Positions 43,239-51,297 are shown, numbered from the stretch's first letter. The stretch is 64,000 nucleotides of DNA from Cirrosporium novae-zelandiae (GCA_026023565.1 JAPETS010000002.1:434001-498000), one strand, 5' to 3'. The notes: generated by a model from the sequence alone, not told the origin. Made by a program: numbers and translations.

Positions 43239-44368
43239 GGTTTGTATTGGATAAAAGGGAAAAAGGCCCAGTTTATAATTGATCGTCTTAGGAAGAAATG
43301 TCTTCTTGTCTTATTTTTCTATAGAAGACTTCCTTCTAGCTGAATTATATACAAAATTGTCTGCATACGATACCGGATCAAATCTTGTCAGATAAGGTGG
43401 AACATGACGCATTCCGGTTTTGGACATGGTGCCGTTTTGGTTGGAGGACTAGGAGCTGGATGGTCGCTGGTAGGGGAGAGGGCGGAGGAGAGGGGTGAAT
43501 GAATGAATGTCTTCGATAGGGGTGGAGAAAGGGCCGTGGGTTCGTGGTTTTGAGAGGAAAAGAGGAGAGAGGGAGGAAAGGTGAGCTAAGCTAAGCTTGC
43601 GCAAGACAGCACAAGTTTAGAACAATCAAAACCAGTGACTATTAGAAGCTCGGGTAACAGCATTCACGAGGGATGTCCAGGTCCAGGCAAAGACCGTCAT
43701 AACGGGTGGGATATATAGATACATACCTAGGTAGATAGGTAAGGAGAGGTAGGTCCCCCCCTTCTCTTTTTTTTCTTCGTCTTTTTTAGAACCTAGTAGG
43801 TTGGTTGGTGGTTGGTGGGTTGGATGAAATTTTTTGTAAGGGATTTTTGGGGGGATGGGATGGATGGATGGAGGTTGATTAGGGTTGTGGGGTGAGGCAA
43901 GAAGAAAAGAGGATTGGATTAGGTGTTATATACATATGTAGAAATAGAAATAGGGGGCGTTATGATATCGATATCGATATTCACATCATAAGAACCTATG
44001 TAGGTAGTCTAGAGAGAGGTGTGGAGGAAGTTCTCCCCCCTTAGCAAGCGAGTAAGGAGAGAGGAGTGGAGTGGAGCGGGACAGGAAGGGCTTATAATGA
44101 GTGATCTATTTCTTTTTCTTTTTCTTTCACTTTCTCCTTATAAACAGGCTTGCCTTTGTCTTGTACTCCTACTCCCATTCCTACTACCCCTACCCCTATA
44201 TAAAATAAAAACTAAAAAATGGAAATAAATCGTACGGTACGGTTTGCTGTATGCCTAGGTATCTAGGTAGGTAAATAGTAGCCAGCCTACATGCTCTTGA
44301 ATGACCTGAATAGCTTGGAAGGGTTTTTGGAGGGAAGTAGAGGATGTGGGTATCGATAAATGGGAAGA

Positions 44369-44393
44369 GGGGGGGGGGGGGGGGGGGGGGGGG
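44369..44393 (+). repeat. Poly-G tract (25 nt)
   Basis: Seen directly. Confidence 0.9.
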
Positions 44394-45501
44394 ATTCTTG
44401 ATGACGGAGCAGAGAAATATATATATATTCCCTCTAGTCCTGGTCCTGAAGTTCTATTCAACAGTAATAATAATAACCATACACAATAATACACAATCAT
44501 AATAACCCGAAATAGACTAGACTTGACGTTTCTGATAATCTGGATGCTGAGACGTAGCTAGTAAAGCTACCTTTTCCCAGGTCCTCTATAAAAATTCCAT
44601 GATCGTGAGAAGGGGGCTGGTTTCCTAACAAATAAGTTGGAGTACGGAATATCCTATCCGAACGATCCGAACGATTGCCAGAGTGTAATTCCATTCGCAT
44701 GGTTGGAATTCGTGGCCTTTAAAGGTTAATTATCATAGAAATATAAGAGAAAGACGGAGCATAAAAGGAATAATTGAGATACTCTTTTTAAATAGGGTGC
44801 TAGCTTTAATCGAAAGACTAGCCTTGCTTCTAGAAAATTGAGTAGATAATAAACACCGCAATTGAATGATTTTTTTCCTCTAGAAAATATGTATCATGTT
44901 TCCGGTAATCAAATCTGGTCAGGATAGGGAATTGAACCCAACCTGGTATTGATGGCATCCGACAGCCTGCTCCATCGAATTGAGGCCCTCGCCAATCGAG
45001 TTGGTTGTTGAAGATAGATGATGGTCTTGCCTGTGAGCATCCCATGGTTAGAGATAAAAGAGGTTGTGCTGTGTATTATCGGTGGGTGTGGCTGGGTTCA
45101 GGGATATTTGAAAATCCATGAACGCTGCTAGTCTGTGAATGTTTTGAAAGATGAGGGGTAATTTCCGTTGTTAGAATTTCAAAGCCATGGAAGGATAAAT
45201 ACGGAGATAAAAAAGAATGATGCCTAGCTGAGTGGCCGTTGAAATTCCCCAAGTACCTACTTACCATACATAGTAGTAGGTAGTGGATGGATTATAGATT
45301 ACACACCAAGGCCCCCACACCACCCTCGACCTAAAACAATTTATCTCAAGATAAGCATTAGTGAGGTATCTACTCGAGTAATAGCCGAGGCACTTTCAGA
45401 TCATCCACCAGCTTTCATGGGAAAACAACAAGGTTGCTTGCTTGCTTTCTCTGCATTTACTGTATGCATACTCATATTTTTAATACATTTTGGGTTGCTT
45501 C

Positions 45502-46700
45502 ATGAAAACAACCATGGCTCGTCTTCTCTCACCTGCCATCTCTTCCTCCCTTTCCCGTCCACTTCCAGTACTAGCAGCTATCCCCTCATGTACATCACAG
45601 CTCTCAACTTCCGCTCCCTCCCCTCCCATAAAAGATGCCCGCTTTCTTACTACAACTAAAGCACGTATTGGAAGATGCATGACATTTGGTCTTCCATCAG
45701 AATACATGGGGGAAGCAACGGTCATATTACGAGAGCTGGCCCAAGATTGGCGGGAATTGGTTGCAGGGAGTGAAGGGTTCTTGACGTCGAAGCGGATGAG
45801 TGGATTATTTCGACAAAAGGTTGTCTGGGGAGAGATGGTAAGTTATGTTGATGTCGCGTTGACCGATATATCTTGGGATGACAAAAGCCAGGCTAATTAC
45901 TTTGGATGAGGGTTGGCGTAGGATGTAATGGTAAGCTATTCTAACATTTCCCCAAAGCAGTAATAGCCAGTTCATTCTGCTATAAAACAATCGAACCAAG
46001 CCATGATAGATATTGAGAATTTTCTAGGGTACTTGAGTCCATCTACAAATAAGCGGAACCATTGGAATCTAATCATGAAAAAGGTCATGTTAACAATGTT
46101 ACTTATTTCCGCTATGCCGAGTCTGCACGGATAAACTGGGCATATAATTTTGCAATACATCTCGACCCTGGGCATAGACGTGAATGGAGTGATATGTGGA
46201 CACCAAAGGGCCACGGACTTATATTGAGGAGTATGCGGACAGATTTCAAGTTTGTATGTTTCATTTTCTTCCTCGGTCTTGTCCTTCCCTAGATCGTTCC
46301 TATTACTATCGAGTGTAGAGAAAAGGGCAGAGACTAATCCTAGCATTATAACTGAAAGCCAATGGCTTGGCCAGACCATGTTACTGTTCTTCATAAGCTA
46401 AGGTCAATGCCCGATCGATCGACAGATTCATTCGTTCTTGACGTTATCATTCTCTCGGAGCGACATCAGCGGCCGGCAGCGAGATGCGAAGAAGACATAG
46501 TGGTATATGATTATCGCCAGGGAAGAAAAGCTACACTACAGCCGTTCATGGTGAACAAATTTCAAGAAGTATTTCAATGGCAAGAGGAGGCCAAACAAAA
46601 GAATAGTAAACGGGTACAGGGTTTACTATCTAGGGTACGAGCGTTAGAAAAGGCAAGTTGGGATAGAGTGGACGCCAAGGAAGACTTTGGAGACCAATGA
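45502..46700 (+). CDS. Hotdog-fold thioesterase (4HBT-like), probably mitochondrial, with microexons
   Basis: RIGRCMTFG, WRELVAGSEGFL, VVWGEM-DVM-GHVNNVTYFRYAESAR, FKFPMAWPDHVTV, AARCEEDIVVYDY. Start could also be 45514. Confidence 0.85.
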
Positions 46701-47966
46701 AGCTAAAAAATGGTGGAGGCCACGGAAGGCTCGGTCGGACAAAAGACAGTAATAAAGATGTGATATTAGGTACAACGTAGGAAGTGAATTATTATTTGGC
46801 GGTATGGACCTCCAGTGGTCTACCAATAGGCAGTGCCGGCAAGAAGATAAAGATGTGGGGTAGTTATACATTTGGAGGAGGGAAGAAGAAATTCGCACGA
46901 TATTTCCGAGGCACTTGAGGGTACAAATGATGGAGTTTCGCTATCAAAAAGTCGGTCCAGGATGCGAAGGCGTTTTTGTGGACAAGTTAGAAGGAGAAGC
47001 ATAAGAAAAGCCCTTGGATAGTAGTTGCTCCCGACGATCCCCAGACCAACTGTCAAAAGCAACAGGGTCTTACTGGAGTATCGGCATCAGATTTCAATCG
47101 GTCAATGGGTATCACGAGTCCTTCACAGGATCAATTGCCAACCGATTGCCTACAATTACCTACTTTTGTCTACTTTTTTTCTAATTTATGAGACTATGGA
47201 TGCAAATTTCCCCAAGTCATGCACATGTGTTGTGAAATAATGACTGGCTGCGGGAGTGGCTGATTGACTAATTGATCAAAGGAACTCCACATTTGATGAT
47301 AGTGACGATGATGCTATTTATTTTTTTTGTTTAATTTTCTTTTTGTGTTATTTTGACTTGATTAGTTTGGTTACTTTTTCTGTGGTGCTAACTAATAAGA
47401 CTTACCACGAAGATATGCCGAGGGCGATCAAATTGAGGATAGGAATAAGCATAGGCTGAGATACATAACGCGATAAAAACAAGCATCTTCCTGGTTCGGT
47501 AATGCAAAAGAGTACTAATTAACTATTACCATCGTACTCGGATACATGAAGAAAAGAAACAAAAAGAAAAAAGCAGATGAGATTGATAAGCTTGATTGAT
47601 TGATGTCTTGGAATACCTTGGGACATCTTGGACAGCTTGGGCACTCAATACACTCAGGATACAGTAATATTAATTAATTACCAGATTCCCACAGTAGCCA
47701 GGATTCCCCTTTTGTCCTCTTGCATGATTTTTTATTCAACTTTACTAGTGAGTGAGATAACTGTCATTCGTACATCAAGTTATTTATTTCATCTTTATTC
47801 GAGGGAAAGCTTAGTAGATCATGGCGTTTTACCTGTTCAAGTCTTTAGGTCTTCCCTGCCAGTCTTTACTTTACCCTTGTTGATGGAGACAATTGTTTTC
47901 ATTTTAACCAATCGCATTCCATTCTCACTCTTCCACCCTCTTAATACGTTAATACGCCTATGAATA

Positions 47967-48038
47967 CCCAGTTAGACCCCCAGTTAGACCCCCAGTTAGA
48001 CCCCCAGTTAGACCCCCAGTTAAACCCCCCCCCCAGTC
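47967..48038. repeat. 12-bp minisatellite (CCCCCAGTTAGA)n, ~5.5 copies
   Basis: Perfect copies at 47977, 47989 and 48001; variant copies flank them. Confidence 0.92.
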
Positions 48039-48336
48039 ATCTCAAAAACCACACACTCAAACTTCTTAGCTAAACTAACTTGGAAAGACTAGAAACGACT
48101 CTTCTTACGCCCTCGCGACCTTCACTTACACATTATTACTTCTTAACCACAAACAATTTCCTTACCCTACTCCCGCCTCAAACACCCACCCCTCCAAAAT
48201 ATCCTTCAAAATTCCGTTCCCTCTCTTTTTAATTGTTCGACTCTGCTGCGGTCTTCTCGGTCTGGCTTGGATAGGTATCCTGTCAAGCCCGCCTGAGATT
48301 GGTTTGCCGCGGTCGGGGTCGTCGCGCCTTCCTTCC

Positions 48337-51297
48337 ATGCCGAAAAACAATGGTTTGAAGAAACTGTCTGCAAACCAGCACAACTCTCGCCATGAAAACG
48401 GTCTTGTTGGTCCTGGGAAGAAAGTGTCTAAACAGAAATCCAACGGTCATTTGAACGGTTCTGCGAATGGCTCCGCGAGAGCTCAGTCTCGTACTCCGCC
48501 GCTTCCATCTCCAGTCCAGTCAACATCCCCGGTATTAGATGCGTCCGATAACCCTTCAGACGGAGTTATGGCAGAGTCACGGCTGCAGAGTGGTGGTGCA
48601 CATGGGTATACGCAAGATGATGGGAGTAGGAGACGGTCGTCCAGAGGTTCAGATTCTTCAGGCTACAGCCCAGAGATTTATCAAAATAGTTCGGTGCCCG
48701 TCAACAATGAACAACCACGACGGCGGATCGACGTCAATGCTGCCAAAAACCCTGCCGTTCATGATAGCACTTCTCCTTATTCAGCAACTACATTGATTCG
48801 CTCGTGCCCATTAATTGATACTATTGCCATCCTTATCATCTTTCTCCAGGTCCCCCCCGCCTTGGTTACCTTTTTCCAATTCATGTTTGCCGCCTTGACA
48901 TTTCCTTCGGGGGGGACTATATTTTCCCTTTCCGCTATTGACATCTTCCAAGGTACTAATGGAGGGCCCTCTGTTGCTACAATCCTAGTTGCTGACACGG
49001 CCCTATTGCTCGTTTGGTTAATGCTGTCAAACCCTGTTCAGAGTTTTGCGTTGGACTTGGCTTCCGCACGCATTGCCATGACCCTTGGTGGTGGACCATC
49101 GCGTAAAGCAGGGCTGTTTGATAGTATATTACTATGCATCATGATCGTTAGTATTGCCCAGCTGAGTCGTAGCAAGTATGCGCAACGGTACCTCATGGAG
49201 CATTTGTTACCCGCAGGGGTCGAGGGAGATTCCTATTCGCTGGAAAACCCACAGACTTCGTCGTTTTCATTTTTCAGTGCTACCTCAACCTCGACACCCG
49301 CTGGCGGGATCAAAAGCATGCTTACAGTCCATATACTTGCACAAGGCCTCATCTTAGGAATTAGGCGTTGGCTGATTGGACGGGAGAAAACCAAAACATC
49401 TCGCCCAGGTAGATCGACGGACCCCGAAGCCAGTGCTGGCTCCCATACGCCGGACACCCAAGTTCCCGCCGATTCTACGAGCATAAGTAGCCTATCGGTT
49501 GCTTCGGATGTGCCTCCTCCCACCCCTACGATTACCAAGGATACCCGAGACAAAACTTCAAGCGTAAGACGAAAAAGACGGCAAGGAACATTGGTCAAAA
49601 GCCAACAGCCCTTGTGGGCAGCCATAGCCCAGTGCAAAGTAAATTACCAACGAGATGGTGATGGGGCCATCCCCGCCCGAGGAGCCCCAGGATCGAGGCC
49701 AGAAGATACGGAAATTCTGCCACCGGCAACATTTGATCGAGAAGCTGGGAAGGTTTGGGTTACCGATGTCGAAGCCACCAAAATTCATTTCAGCACCAGC
49801 CCCTTTTCTCTTTACTACTCATCGTCAACCGATGACGATGACTCCGATAGGGACACGGCAAGCCGTCGTCCGTGTGCGGACCAACCGAAGCCCTTTTACA
49901 TCCGTGTCAATGGCGCCGACTGGACGTCTGTTATTTGCAATAAGCTGCCGGAACTTGATATTGGTGGTGGCAGATATGGAGAGCAGTGGTATGGTGAAAT
50001 CTTCGGACTTGCCCCTAAATGTACCTATCTGTGTACGTTTTTACGTAGCTCTGATGACCAGGAGCTGTTTTCCGTGAGCATCACCACTCCAGCTGCTCTC
50101 AATGCTGAGCAAGGTTTGTATATCGTCGCATTCCATATACGTAGATCGATGCTTATTTAGAGAGTAGTACCTAATGCCACATCCCATCGTGCGGGCCTGC
50201 CTCTACGACCGTCTTCTCCGACCACGACCCTGAAGAACTCGATAGCTGCACAGGAAACCAAACTTCAAGAGGTTAGGTCAAAACAGAAGCGGATCCGCAA
50301 AGACCATAAATCTTCCGTTGCCGCCCAGAAACGGGAAGTCGATGCTCTTAGCCAACGTCTAAATTCCTCTGGAACAACAGATGAACGACAGCGTCAACGA
50401 ATTCTTCAAGTCAAGCAAAGCATCAAGCAAGCCGATGAAGCGACCGCAGAGATGAAGAACAGAATTGAAGAGCTAGCCAATGTTCCTGAAACAGAGACAA
50501 GCGCTTGGAAACAAGGGAAAATGGATTGGGATGAAGAGAATTCCAAACAAGCTGCTACTGAGATTGAGCTTACAAAGGCCAAAGCCAATGCCGAACGTCA
50601 ACTTAATCAAACCTCGTCCGACATTTCTACCACTTCACGTGCTCGGGAAAGGCTTCAGGCTCGCGCTGCCAAGCTTACGGAACAGCATCAGAAGGCTAGA
50701 ACTACTATAGCCCCGGCAATCAACGAGAAGACACAACGTATCGCCGACCAAATTGCCAAGGACCATCAACGGCAGCAGGTCGAGTCAGATTACCAAAATC
50801 AATTCAAAAGACTAGAGCAGGACACTTTGGAGTCTAAAAGCACGACTCAGGCACTTTGGCAGCAGATCCAGCATCTGCATTCAAGTTTGGAAGAAGCTGC
50901 TAGTCCTGTGTATAATCTTAATGATCTCAATGATCCTCCGCTCCAGACGCCTGAAGGAGATTTGCCAGGGACAATGCCTCAAAATTCGCAAAACAGCATT
51001 TCTCAAGCATTCAGCTACTTTCCAAGCTTCACAAAGCTAACTCCCATCCCGATAGAAAATCACGACATGGTGGTCAATGAATCTGCTTCACCGCCGCATA
51101 CTGTGATAACGGTTGTAGATCATGCCTACGGTCGTCCGCGAGGGCGGTCTAGTTCGATGCTTTCAGGTGCTAGTGGCACTACAGATTTCTTTGACGCTGA
51201 TGCCAGCATGACCGAGGGTCGCCCGCCATTTGGGACCGTGCTTGGAAACGTGGGTGGAGATGGTAGCCAGCGGGATCCGATGAGTCCGCCTAGGTGA
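48337..51297 (+). CDS. acrB: Ubiquitination network signalling protein AcrB-like (TM region plus coiled coil), one intron from 50114
   Basis: N-terminal SRHENGLVGPGK..KQKSNGHLNG, CPLIDTIAILI.LQ.P, QQPLWAAIA..K, RVNGADW, LRPSSPTTTLKNSI, then a long coiled coil. Confidence 0.8.

Follow-up and report, generated by a model that had tools for sequence, protein, structure and literature searches.

A single guanine at position 46028 of the analyzed DNA of Cirrosporium novae-zelandiae is, with a probability of about 85% as judged from this sequence and its relatives, a genuine and constitutive one-nucleotide exon between two complete introns. It is located in a predicted thioesterase gene, the catalytic motif of which would be interrupted by three short GT-AG introns of the U2 type within only 10 coding bases (WGEM/intron 1/GATGTAATG/A/G/B/GT CAT; slashes denote exon-intron borders throughout). 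A donor, a branch-like element, and an acceptor of its own would be present in each of these introns, the lengths of which (84, 97, and 55 nt) are normal for fungi. All coordinates refer to the window, i.e., the whole stretch of 64,000 nucleotides that was analyzed (GCA_026023565.1 JAPETS010000002.1:434001-498000), and all exons and introns of the gene are on its plus strand.

Results

Structure of the gene and its splice path

Exon 1 (45514 to 45837) shares its start codon, the ATG at 45514, with the deposited protein, while a second in-frame ATG is present upstream at 45502, and it ends in phase 0 with ...VVWGEM, GAG ATG being its last codons. Intron 1 (45838 to 45921, 84 nt), the position of which recurs in many orthologues, has the donor GTAAGT, the acceptor TAG (45919 to 45921), and a CTAAT element (45893 to 45897) 25 nt before its 3' end. 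It is followed by the 9-nt exon GATGTAATG (45922 to 45930), which would encode Asp-Val-Met (DVM) and has the form GAYNNNATG in the orthologues, with its Asp aligned to the Asp of the motif D-x-x-G-H-V-N-N. Intron A (45931 to 46027, 97 nt) begins with the donor GTAAGC (45931 to 45936) and ends with TTTTCTAG, the last base of its TAG acceptor being 46027; its branch candidate ATGAT (46003 to 46007), 21 nt upstream of the acceptor, is weak. The one-nucleotide exon G (46028) would supply the first base of the codon for Gly in G-H-V-N-N, an assignment that is based on the reading frame, the orthologues, and the transcript-like contig L052. Intron B (46029 to 46083, 55 nt) has the donor GTACTT (46029 to 46034), which lacks the G at +5, a CTAAT element (46069 to 46073) 11 nt upstream of its acceptor, and the acceptor AAG, which ends at 46083. 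The whole unit TAG/G/GTACTT spans positions 46025 to 46034.

The HVNN exon (46084 to 46253) starts at 46084 with GT CAT GTT AAC AAT, i.e., with the remainder GT of the Gly codon, and continues with HVNNVTYFRYAESARINW up to DFKF. A 105-nt intron (46254 to 46358; donor GTATGT, acceptor AAG) separates it from the last exon (46359 to 46700, PMAWPDHV...EDFGDQ, stop codon TGA at 46698 to 46700), and the junction DFKF/PMAWPD agrees with the orthologues. The translations of the three long exons are stop-free, and that of the last exon is 100% identical to the deposited protein P0004.

A first-pass annotation, made from the sequence alone, had described much of this arrangement, and re-reading of the sequence from 45300 to 46800 returned the same coordinates: the phase-0 end of exon 1 at WGEM/GTAAGT (45838), the 9-nt exon (45922 to 45930, DVM) between TAG and GTAAGC, the acceptor, lone G (46028), and 55-nt intron with the donor GTACTT and the acceptor AAG, and the last acceptor before the HVNN exon, which ends at 46083 and leaves GT-CAT. 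WGEM-DVM ends on a codon border (phase 0), and two bases of a codon stand at the start of the HVNN exon. Its judgment that the donor GTACTT and the branch point of the second intron are weak fits the sequence, in that the donor lacks the +5 G and the branch candidate of intron A is just ATGAT; these are the two points within the window that speak against the proposed structure.

The possible splice paths were enumerated. The 17 GT and 21 AG sites can be combined into 6037 GT-AG paths with at most three introns of at least 40 nt each, and 262 of them are open and reach HVNN in frame. The sequence WGEM-DVM-G-HVNN results from only one of the 6037 paths, namely the one with the introns 45838-45921, 45931-46027, and 46029-46083, which bears out the earlier proposal that inclusion of the G yields WGEM-DVM-GHVNN. 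The simplest competing path has a single intron (45842-46083) and yields WGEM-VS-HVNN. An alternative with a 7-nt exon, which yields GWRH, was rejected because it is devoid of the Asp kept by the orthologues, in agreement with the preference stated in the first-pass annotation. A further 260 open paths were discarded because the conserved Asp-x-Met-Gly is absent.

Integrity of the assembly and surrounding sequence

A deficit of one base beside GG runs looks like an indel error, and a G missing from the assembly at 45930/45931 or 46083/46084 would mean that the gene contains an ordinary phase-0 or phase-1 intron at this site. However, a Logan contig of the DNA run X1 (3625 nt, word depth 340.6) is identical to the window from 44800 to 47200 (2401 bases) with 0 differences and 0 gaps, so that the loss of a G at 46083-46084, considered previously as a possible refutation, is not borne out by the second assembly. 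X1, a DNA run, was the only one found to contain the stretch; runs X2 and X3 of the same study gave no match, and no RNA run was listed for the organism. Run X1 is the probable source of the window DNA, and the contig thus represents another assembler applied to the same data rather than independent data. Because this assembler gives the same numbers of G at 45930/45931, 46027 to 46029, and 46083/46084, loss of a G during assembly is unlikely; in addition, 28 other distinct loci, taken from many assemblies, show the same deficit together with the same motif. The probability of an assembly error is, in our view, very low.

The surroundings of the gene contain several further features. A short dispersed repeat is located at 44927 to 44965, about 38 bases of which are matched with two to five differences by many other contigs of run X1, and the summed word depth reaches up to 3596 at the repeat versus about 340 alongside. 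It presumably resembles the T-arm of a tRNA on the minus strand; neither ARAGORN nor Rfam yielded a match to it, and no tRNAs or other RNA families were found in the regions 44000 to 48000 and 44700 to 46900. Downstream of the thioesterase gene, a 618-codon open frame extends from 48304 to 50160 on the plus strand; no Pfam family was found for it (E ≤0.01), nor for an antisense ORF (45972 to 46394) and an ORF at 47628 to 47963.

Orthologous loci

Metagenome contigs were scanned with an alignment of 13 intact-model proteins, which yielded 80 orthologous fungal loci, and these were classified on the basis of the DNA between V-x-W-G-E and H-V-N-N. The one-nucleotide exon class comprises 39 complete loci and one incomplete locus (L019) with the layout ATG/GT...AG/G/GT...AG/GN-CAY, and has introns A of 49 to 344 nt and introns B of 48 to 80 nt. 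Seven loci have a 2-nt exon (...AG/GG/GTGAG...AG/N-CAY), and one nucleotide is left before CAY. Fifteen loci contain a single phase-0 intron in which the last AG is followed by a complete codon and an internal AGG(G)GT is absent, and 10 have no intron at this site. The remainder consists of one spliced copy (L052), one odd locus (L080), and six loci that could not be classified (four without the HVNN region, two cut inside intron B).

In 335 kb of related loci AGGGT has a density of 0.89 per kb, which corresponds to a probability of about 0.11 for one occurrence in 130 nt, and the layout in the window alone is within the reach of chance. It is the orthologues that lift the one-nucleotide exon above chance. 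After collapsing copies that are at least 95% identical and excluding L019, the intron A of which is cut, 28 distinct loci remained, which together with the window make 29. In all 29 distinct one-base-short loci AG/G/GT splits the gap into two introns of at least 48 nt, whereas it is present in 0 of the 15 loci in which a whole codon is left. If the loci were independent, 29 of 29 by chance would have a probability near 1e-28, but the loci are related, and therefore the counts are not independent events and the true figure is weaker.

A frame deficit of 0, 1, or 2 bases predicts no motif, AG/G/GT, or AG/GG/GT, respectively, with L080 as the one exception. The seven loci with the 2-nt exon GG (L014, L020-L023, L058, and L059) read AAG/GG/GTGAGT...CAG/Y-CAT, so that their intron B is shifted by one base compared to the one-nucleotide loci and has a strong consensus donor, which is GTGAGT or GTGAGC in the four distinct loci of this class. 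In L080 (1240-1270) a 23-nt remnant, in which the start of intron A is joined to the tail of intron B, is present between DSM and HVNN. It is shorter than an intron can be, is out of frame, and has no internal motif. A further intron is present downstream, and therefore the contig is genomic; over 1315 nt downstream of the remnant it is 100% identical to L078, a contig that ends exactly in the tail of intron B. L080 represents either a mis-joined assembly or a gene that is broken.

Splice site signature and order of splicing

Alignment of the 29 distinct loci revealed that the two donors and the two acceptors differ. The donor of intron A has G at +5 in 29/29 loci. The donor of intron B has A at +3 in 29/29, C at +4 in 16, and G at +5 in only three loci. 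At position -3 of the acceptor A is present in 24, T in five, and C in none of the loci for intron A, compared to C in 13, A in nine, and T in seven for intron B. The unit has the consensus AAG/G/GTAY, and a branch-like motif precedes the AG in 25/29 introns A and in 27/29 introns B. The alignment that the first-pass annotation had called for, with a conserved YAG-G-GT in mind, showed AG/G/GT in 40 of the 80 loci, with A at -3 in 24/29 and T in 5/29 of the distinct loci.

By this comparison, the putative introns A and B are shown to be separate introns around a G that is kept, and we infer from the relatives that the one-nucleotide exon is used in Cirrosporium itself. The 3' splice site of intron A and the 5' splice site of intron B are only one base apart and cannot be engaged together, and therefore the two introns would be removed one by one, by intron definition in a recursive-like manner. 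Either of the two might be the first to be removed. After the first cut the G would be the terminal base of a normal exon. The weak donor of intron B and the preference for AAG might reflect U1 pairing across AG-G-GTA with one G bulged, or they might serve to avoid competition between the two overlapping sites. If the signature is a functional one, a weak or bulged U1 site might fix the order of the two cuts.

A transcript-like contig from relatives

Additional evidence comes from L052, a contig of 1346 nt, whose identity to the genomic loci L074-76 is 99.4-100%. Compared to L074, precisely intron A (57 nt) and intron B (80 nt) are missing from it, and one G is kept (GATAGCATG-G-GC CAT). Two further canonical GT..AG introns are also missing, while intron 1 is retained (L052:408-513, between WGD-M and the 9-nt exon). 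Because the precise loss of four introns from a near-identical genome is implausible, we interpret L052 as the copy of an RNA that was partly spliced. In this molecule the introns around the one-nucleotide exon are gone before the intron upstream of the 9-nt exon. A weaker second line of evidence is the Logan-derived protein P0014 (201 aa, encoded by a contig of transcript size, 1044 nt), which is 84% identical to P0023 of Diplodia corticola. It reads WGEMDSMGHVNN with DSMG where the genome model P0023 reads WGEM-VR-HVNN.

L052 contains one G more than excision of a single GT..AG intron would leave, but taken alone it also fits a non-canonical intron that is shifted by one base, because its product ATG-G-GC would be the same. 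In the window such an intron would extend from 45931 to 46082 (GT..AA) or from 45932 to 46083 (TA..AG) and result in the same mRNA, and GGT CAT is indeed contiguous in the genome (46083 to 46088). However, a shifted intron does not explain why AG/G/GT is present in all 29 one-base-short loci and in 0/15 of the non-short loci, why branch-like motifs precede both AGs (25/29 for A, 27/29 for B), and why the two-bases-short clade has AG/GG/GT. Moreover, both halves are at least 48 nt long, which is the size of a whole fungal intron. A single shifted intron has, therefore, only a very small probability compared to two introns around a one-nucleotide exon.

A different question is whether inclusion of the G is regulated. 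Skipping, i.e., joining of the donor of A to the acceptor of B, would lead to a frameshift and could act as an on/off switch, which is compatible with the presence of a genuine exon. The weak donor of intron B, with G at +5 in only 3/29 loci, would fit, and it has been cited that an artificial one-nucleotide exon in the potato invertase was skipped in 33% of the transcripts (available text of PMC4674806). The skipped form has not been seen, the sole transcript-like contig, L052, includes the G, and an essential catalytic residue that has been conserved for so long speaks in favor of constitutive use. Regulated skipping thus seems unlikely.

The predicted protein and its catalytic motif

The gene product is predicted to be a hotdog thioesterase of the 4HBT_2 family (PF13279), as the HVNN exon and the last exon reach 26.1 and 32.8 bits, respectively, at a Pfam cut-off of 25.5; it is probably a mitochondrial enzyme. 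Inclusion of the 9-nt and the one-nucleotide exon yields a predicted product of 281 residues with an intact Asp-x-x-Gly-His-Val-Asn-Asn, and an N-terminal Asp-x-x-Gly-His-Val-x-Asn motif is present only in this model. The consensus of intact database models is VVWGEMDSMGHVNN, with DSMGHVNN at the motif. A profile of the orthologues matches the solved thioesterase PDB 5byu with an E-value of 2e-10, WGEMDSMGHVNN being aligned over WGDMDALGHVNN. The motif of 5byu is DALGHVNN, and in 5dio, an entry for the same protein, this Asp is replaced by Ala. We take the Asp of this motif to be catalytic in 4HBT-type enzymes. Because the Asp of the Cirrosporium protein aligns with the Asp of 5byu, the 9-nt exon would encode this key residue, and the one-nucleotide exon would start the next Gly. 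The earlier recognition of a D-x-x-G-H-V-N-N thioesterase motif thus agrees with both the alignment to DALGHVNN of 5byu and the Pfam 4HBT_2 scores above the cut-off.

The deposited model of the gene lacks the motif. P0004 ('MAG: hypothetical protein M1834_002829 [Cirrosporium novae-zelandiae]') has 265 residues and the N-terminus MARLLS, and its intron 45838-46121 joins WGEM to SARINW, so that the whole catalytic motif is dropped. This raises the possibility that the gene is broken or that its product lacks the motif, either as deposited or via the intron 45842-46083 (WGEM-VS-HVNN), a path that is open and requires one intron only; the annotation of Diplodia P0023 as WGEM-VR-HVNN is of the same type. 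Nevertheless, the Asp is lost in both models, and in the deposited one HVNNVTYFRYAE with its invariant columns is lost as well. The GTTATG donor at 45842 comes 4 nt after a perfect GTAAGT. No exon is interrupted by a stop, and the last one shares 57-71% identity with most orthologues. Furthermore, P0014, which is 84% identical to P0023, has DSMG in place of VR. The intact motif WG[ED]x-[DE]x[MFV]-x-H[VI]NN is missing in 29 of 46 database homologues, some of which are merely incomplete proteins, and this frequency indicates annotation failure rather than biology. A product without the catalytic motif has, therefore, a low probability.

Among the models without the motif are the deposited one of Cirrosporium and some from Alternaria, Pyrenophora, Bipolaris, and Diplodia. 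As the single G cannot be placed by gene finders, the catalytic motif is deleted or garbled by various work-arounds. In Alternaria, Pyrenophora, and Bipolaris an upstream phase-1 donor is joined to GT-CAT, which results in '...DC-HVNN'; P0006, P0008, P0009, and P0012 from these three genera read '...ILQET..DC-HVNN' and lack, besides the 9-nt and the one-nucleotide exon, another exon of roughly 90 nt (RELVAGSEGFL...WGEM). In Diplodia exon 1 is extended by 4 nt, which yields 'VR', and in Bathelium intron B is read through.

Distribution and evolution

A quick phylogenetic tree (IQ-TREE, LG+G4) was calculated with the trait columns masked; its deep nodes are mostly open, and well-supported branches are starred in the following. 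Loci with the one-nucleotide exon adjoin reference proteins of Alternaria (97*), Venturia (96*), the Imshaugia group (95* and 92), Aulographum (92), Pleopsidium (85), and Pyrenophora (84); L065-67 are the neighbors of Alternaria and L038-40 those of Pyrenophora. Alternaria belongs to the Dothideomycetes, Imshaugia and Pleopsidium to the Lecanoromycetes, and Cirrosporium novae-zelandiae is placed in the class Xylobotryomycetes by the NCBI taxonomy. The one-nucleotide label requires nine changes on the tree, at least six of which are forced by starred branches, compared to a mean of 27.1 after shuffling. The loci with the 2-nt exon form one clade (100*), and the clade with Pseudogymnoascus, Cadophora, and Drepanopeziza contains mostly single-intron and intron-free forms.

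Several loci nested among those with the one-nucleotide exon have lost introns. L029 and L055 contain a single intron with a donor of type A and the acceptor AAG/GGT, which may be read as a precise loss of intron B, and L001-4 have lost both introns. It is conceivable that the one-nucleotide exon is ancient, that it predates the split of Dothideomycetes, Lecanoromycetes, and Xylobotryomycetes and has been kept as the minimal unit AAG/G/GTAY, and that the signature represents a functional rule for abutting introns; we propose this tentatively and rate its chance slightly below even. If it is true, the 2-nt clade, the AAG/GGT single-intron forms, and the intron-free forms would represent a series of a one-base intron shift and stepwise intron loss.

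Discussion

The thioesterase gene adds a further gene family to those with an exon of one base, the smallest size an exon can have, after APC11, CYP621A, and 13 unnamed genes of Coprinopsis. It is apparently the most widely conserved case so far, and thus the smallest possible exon seems to be able to stay stable over long evolutionary times. The 29 distinct AG/G/GT variants together with their 2-nt, single-intron, and intron-free relatives represent a natural data set on how abutting introns are recognized and ordered. In addition, a simple rule might enable the detection of more cases, namely, adjacent exons that are one or two bases out of phase combined with an AGG(G)GT inside an over-long intron, which it divides in two.

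In the literature searched, which covered subscription journals only in small part and excluded supplements, we found neither a one-base exon nor a stwintron in a thioesterase gene, and nothing relevant on a microexon in a fungal thioesterase. The thioesterase family, its breadth, and its series of derivatives are therefore new to print as far as this literature goes. As one-nucleotide exons have already been reported for APC11, CYP621A, and Coprinopsis, the thioesterase gene represents a further case of a known kind.

At the protein level, the similarity to 4HBT-type hotdog thioesterases (PF13279; 5byu, 5dio) consists of exon translations above the Pfam cut-off and of the aligned motif. The fungal proteins differ by a long N-terminal extension and a C-terminal tail, both of which are absent in the solved protein 5byu with its 133 residues.

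The first-pass annotation had compared the two abutting introns with the stwintrons of fungi. In a stwintron, the donor, the branch point, or the acceptor of an external intron is interrupted by an internal one, and the external intron comes into being only once the first excision has taken place (PMC8469720 and PMC5587772, as far as their text is available). The idea of two abutting introns stands, as complete introns around a one-nucleotide exon are indicated by 40 of the 80 loci, L052, and the second assembly; in the strict sense, however, the arrangement is no stwintron, because the splice signals of either intron are left uninterrupted by the other one, and the G is retained. The accessible parts of these reports on stwintrons of the Pezizomycotina nevertheless reveal common features, i.e., a compound intervening sequence, consecutive U2 splicing, and one-base differences of intron positions between orthologues. 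In contrast to stwintrons, both thioesterase introns would be complete in the primary transcript, and the one base between them would stay in the mRNA. A recursive ratchet point, in which the AG is directly followed by GT and nothing is retained (model in the available text of PMC4674806), resembles the thioesterase gene in its workings, but this zero-length exon was also rejected, as the G between AG and GT is needed for the reading frame.

The closest relatives of the thioesterase exon are thus the reported one-nucleotide exons. In Coprinopsis cinerea, a long-read annotation lists 13 exons of 1 nt and 57 exons of 2 nt (PMC12230235), and both exon sizes of the thioesterase loci are therefore on record in a fungus. 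That fungus is a basidiomycete and the counts are genome-wide; in the part of the report that is accessible, neither a thioesterase nor conservation across classes is named. The APC11 gene of Arabidopsis contains a constitutive one-nucleotide exon between two GT-AG introns (Guo and Liu, 2015, PMC4674806). According to the accessible text, its authors proposed intron definition and recursive-like sequential removal, as is suggested here for the thioesterase gene, and the base of the exon is an A, the identity of which is immaterial. APC11 is a plant gene for which the case was proven with GFP fusions and RT-PCR, whereas the thioesterase exon of Cirrosporium is predicted from sequence.

The one-nucleotide exon of the P450 gene CYP621A of Fusarium is, by its own description in the text available, the second case overall and the first in fungi (Nelson and Syed, 2026, PMC12940212). 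As described there, it shares with the thioesterase gene the unit AG/G/GT, a G exon inside the Gly codon of a conserved motif, and two short introns with a joint length of about twice that of a usual intron; it was likewise found through misfitting exon phases and it also breaks automatic annotation. The case is backed by an alignment of orthologues and by RNA reads. In CYP621A, a member of a different gene family, the G occupies the middle position of the codon, compared to the first position in the thioesterase gene, and the CYP621A exon is limited to Fusarium with 20 orthologues in the account accessible to us, compared to neighbors from the Dothideomycetes and the Lecanoromycetes and a genome from the Xylobotryomycetes. 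The thioesterase gene furthermore differs from CYP621A by the 9-nt exon directly upstream and by the existence of 2-nt, single-intron, and intron-free derivatives.
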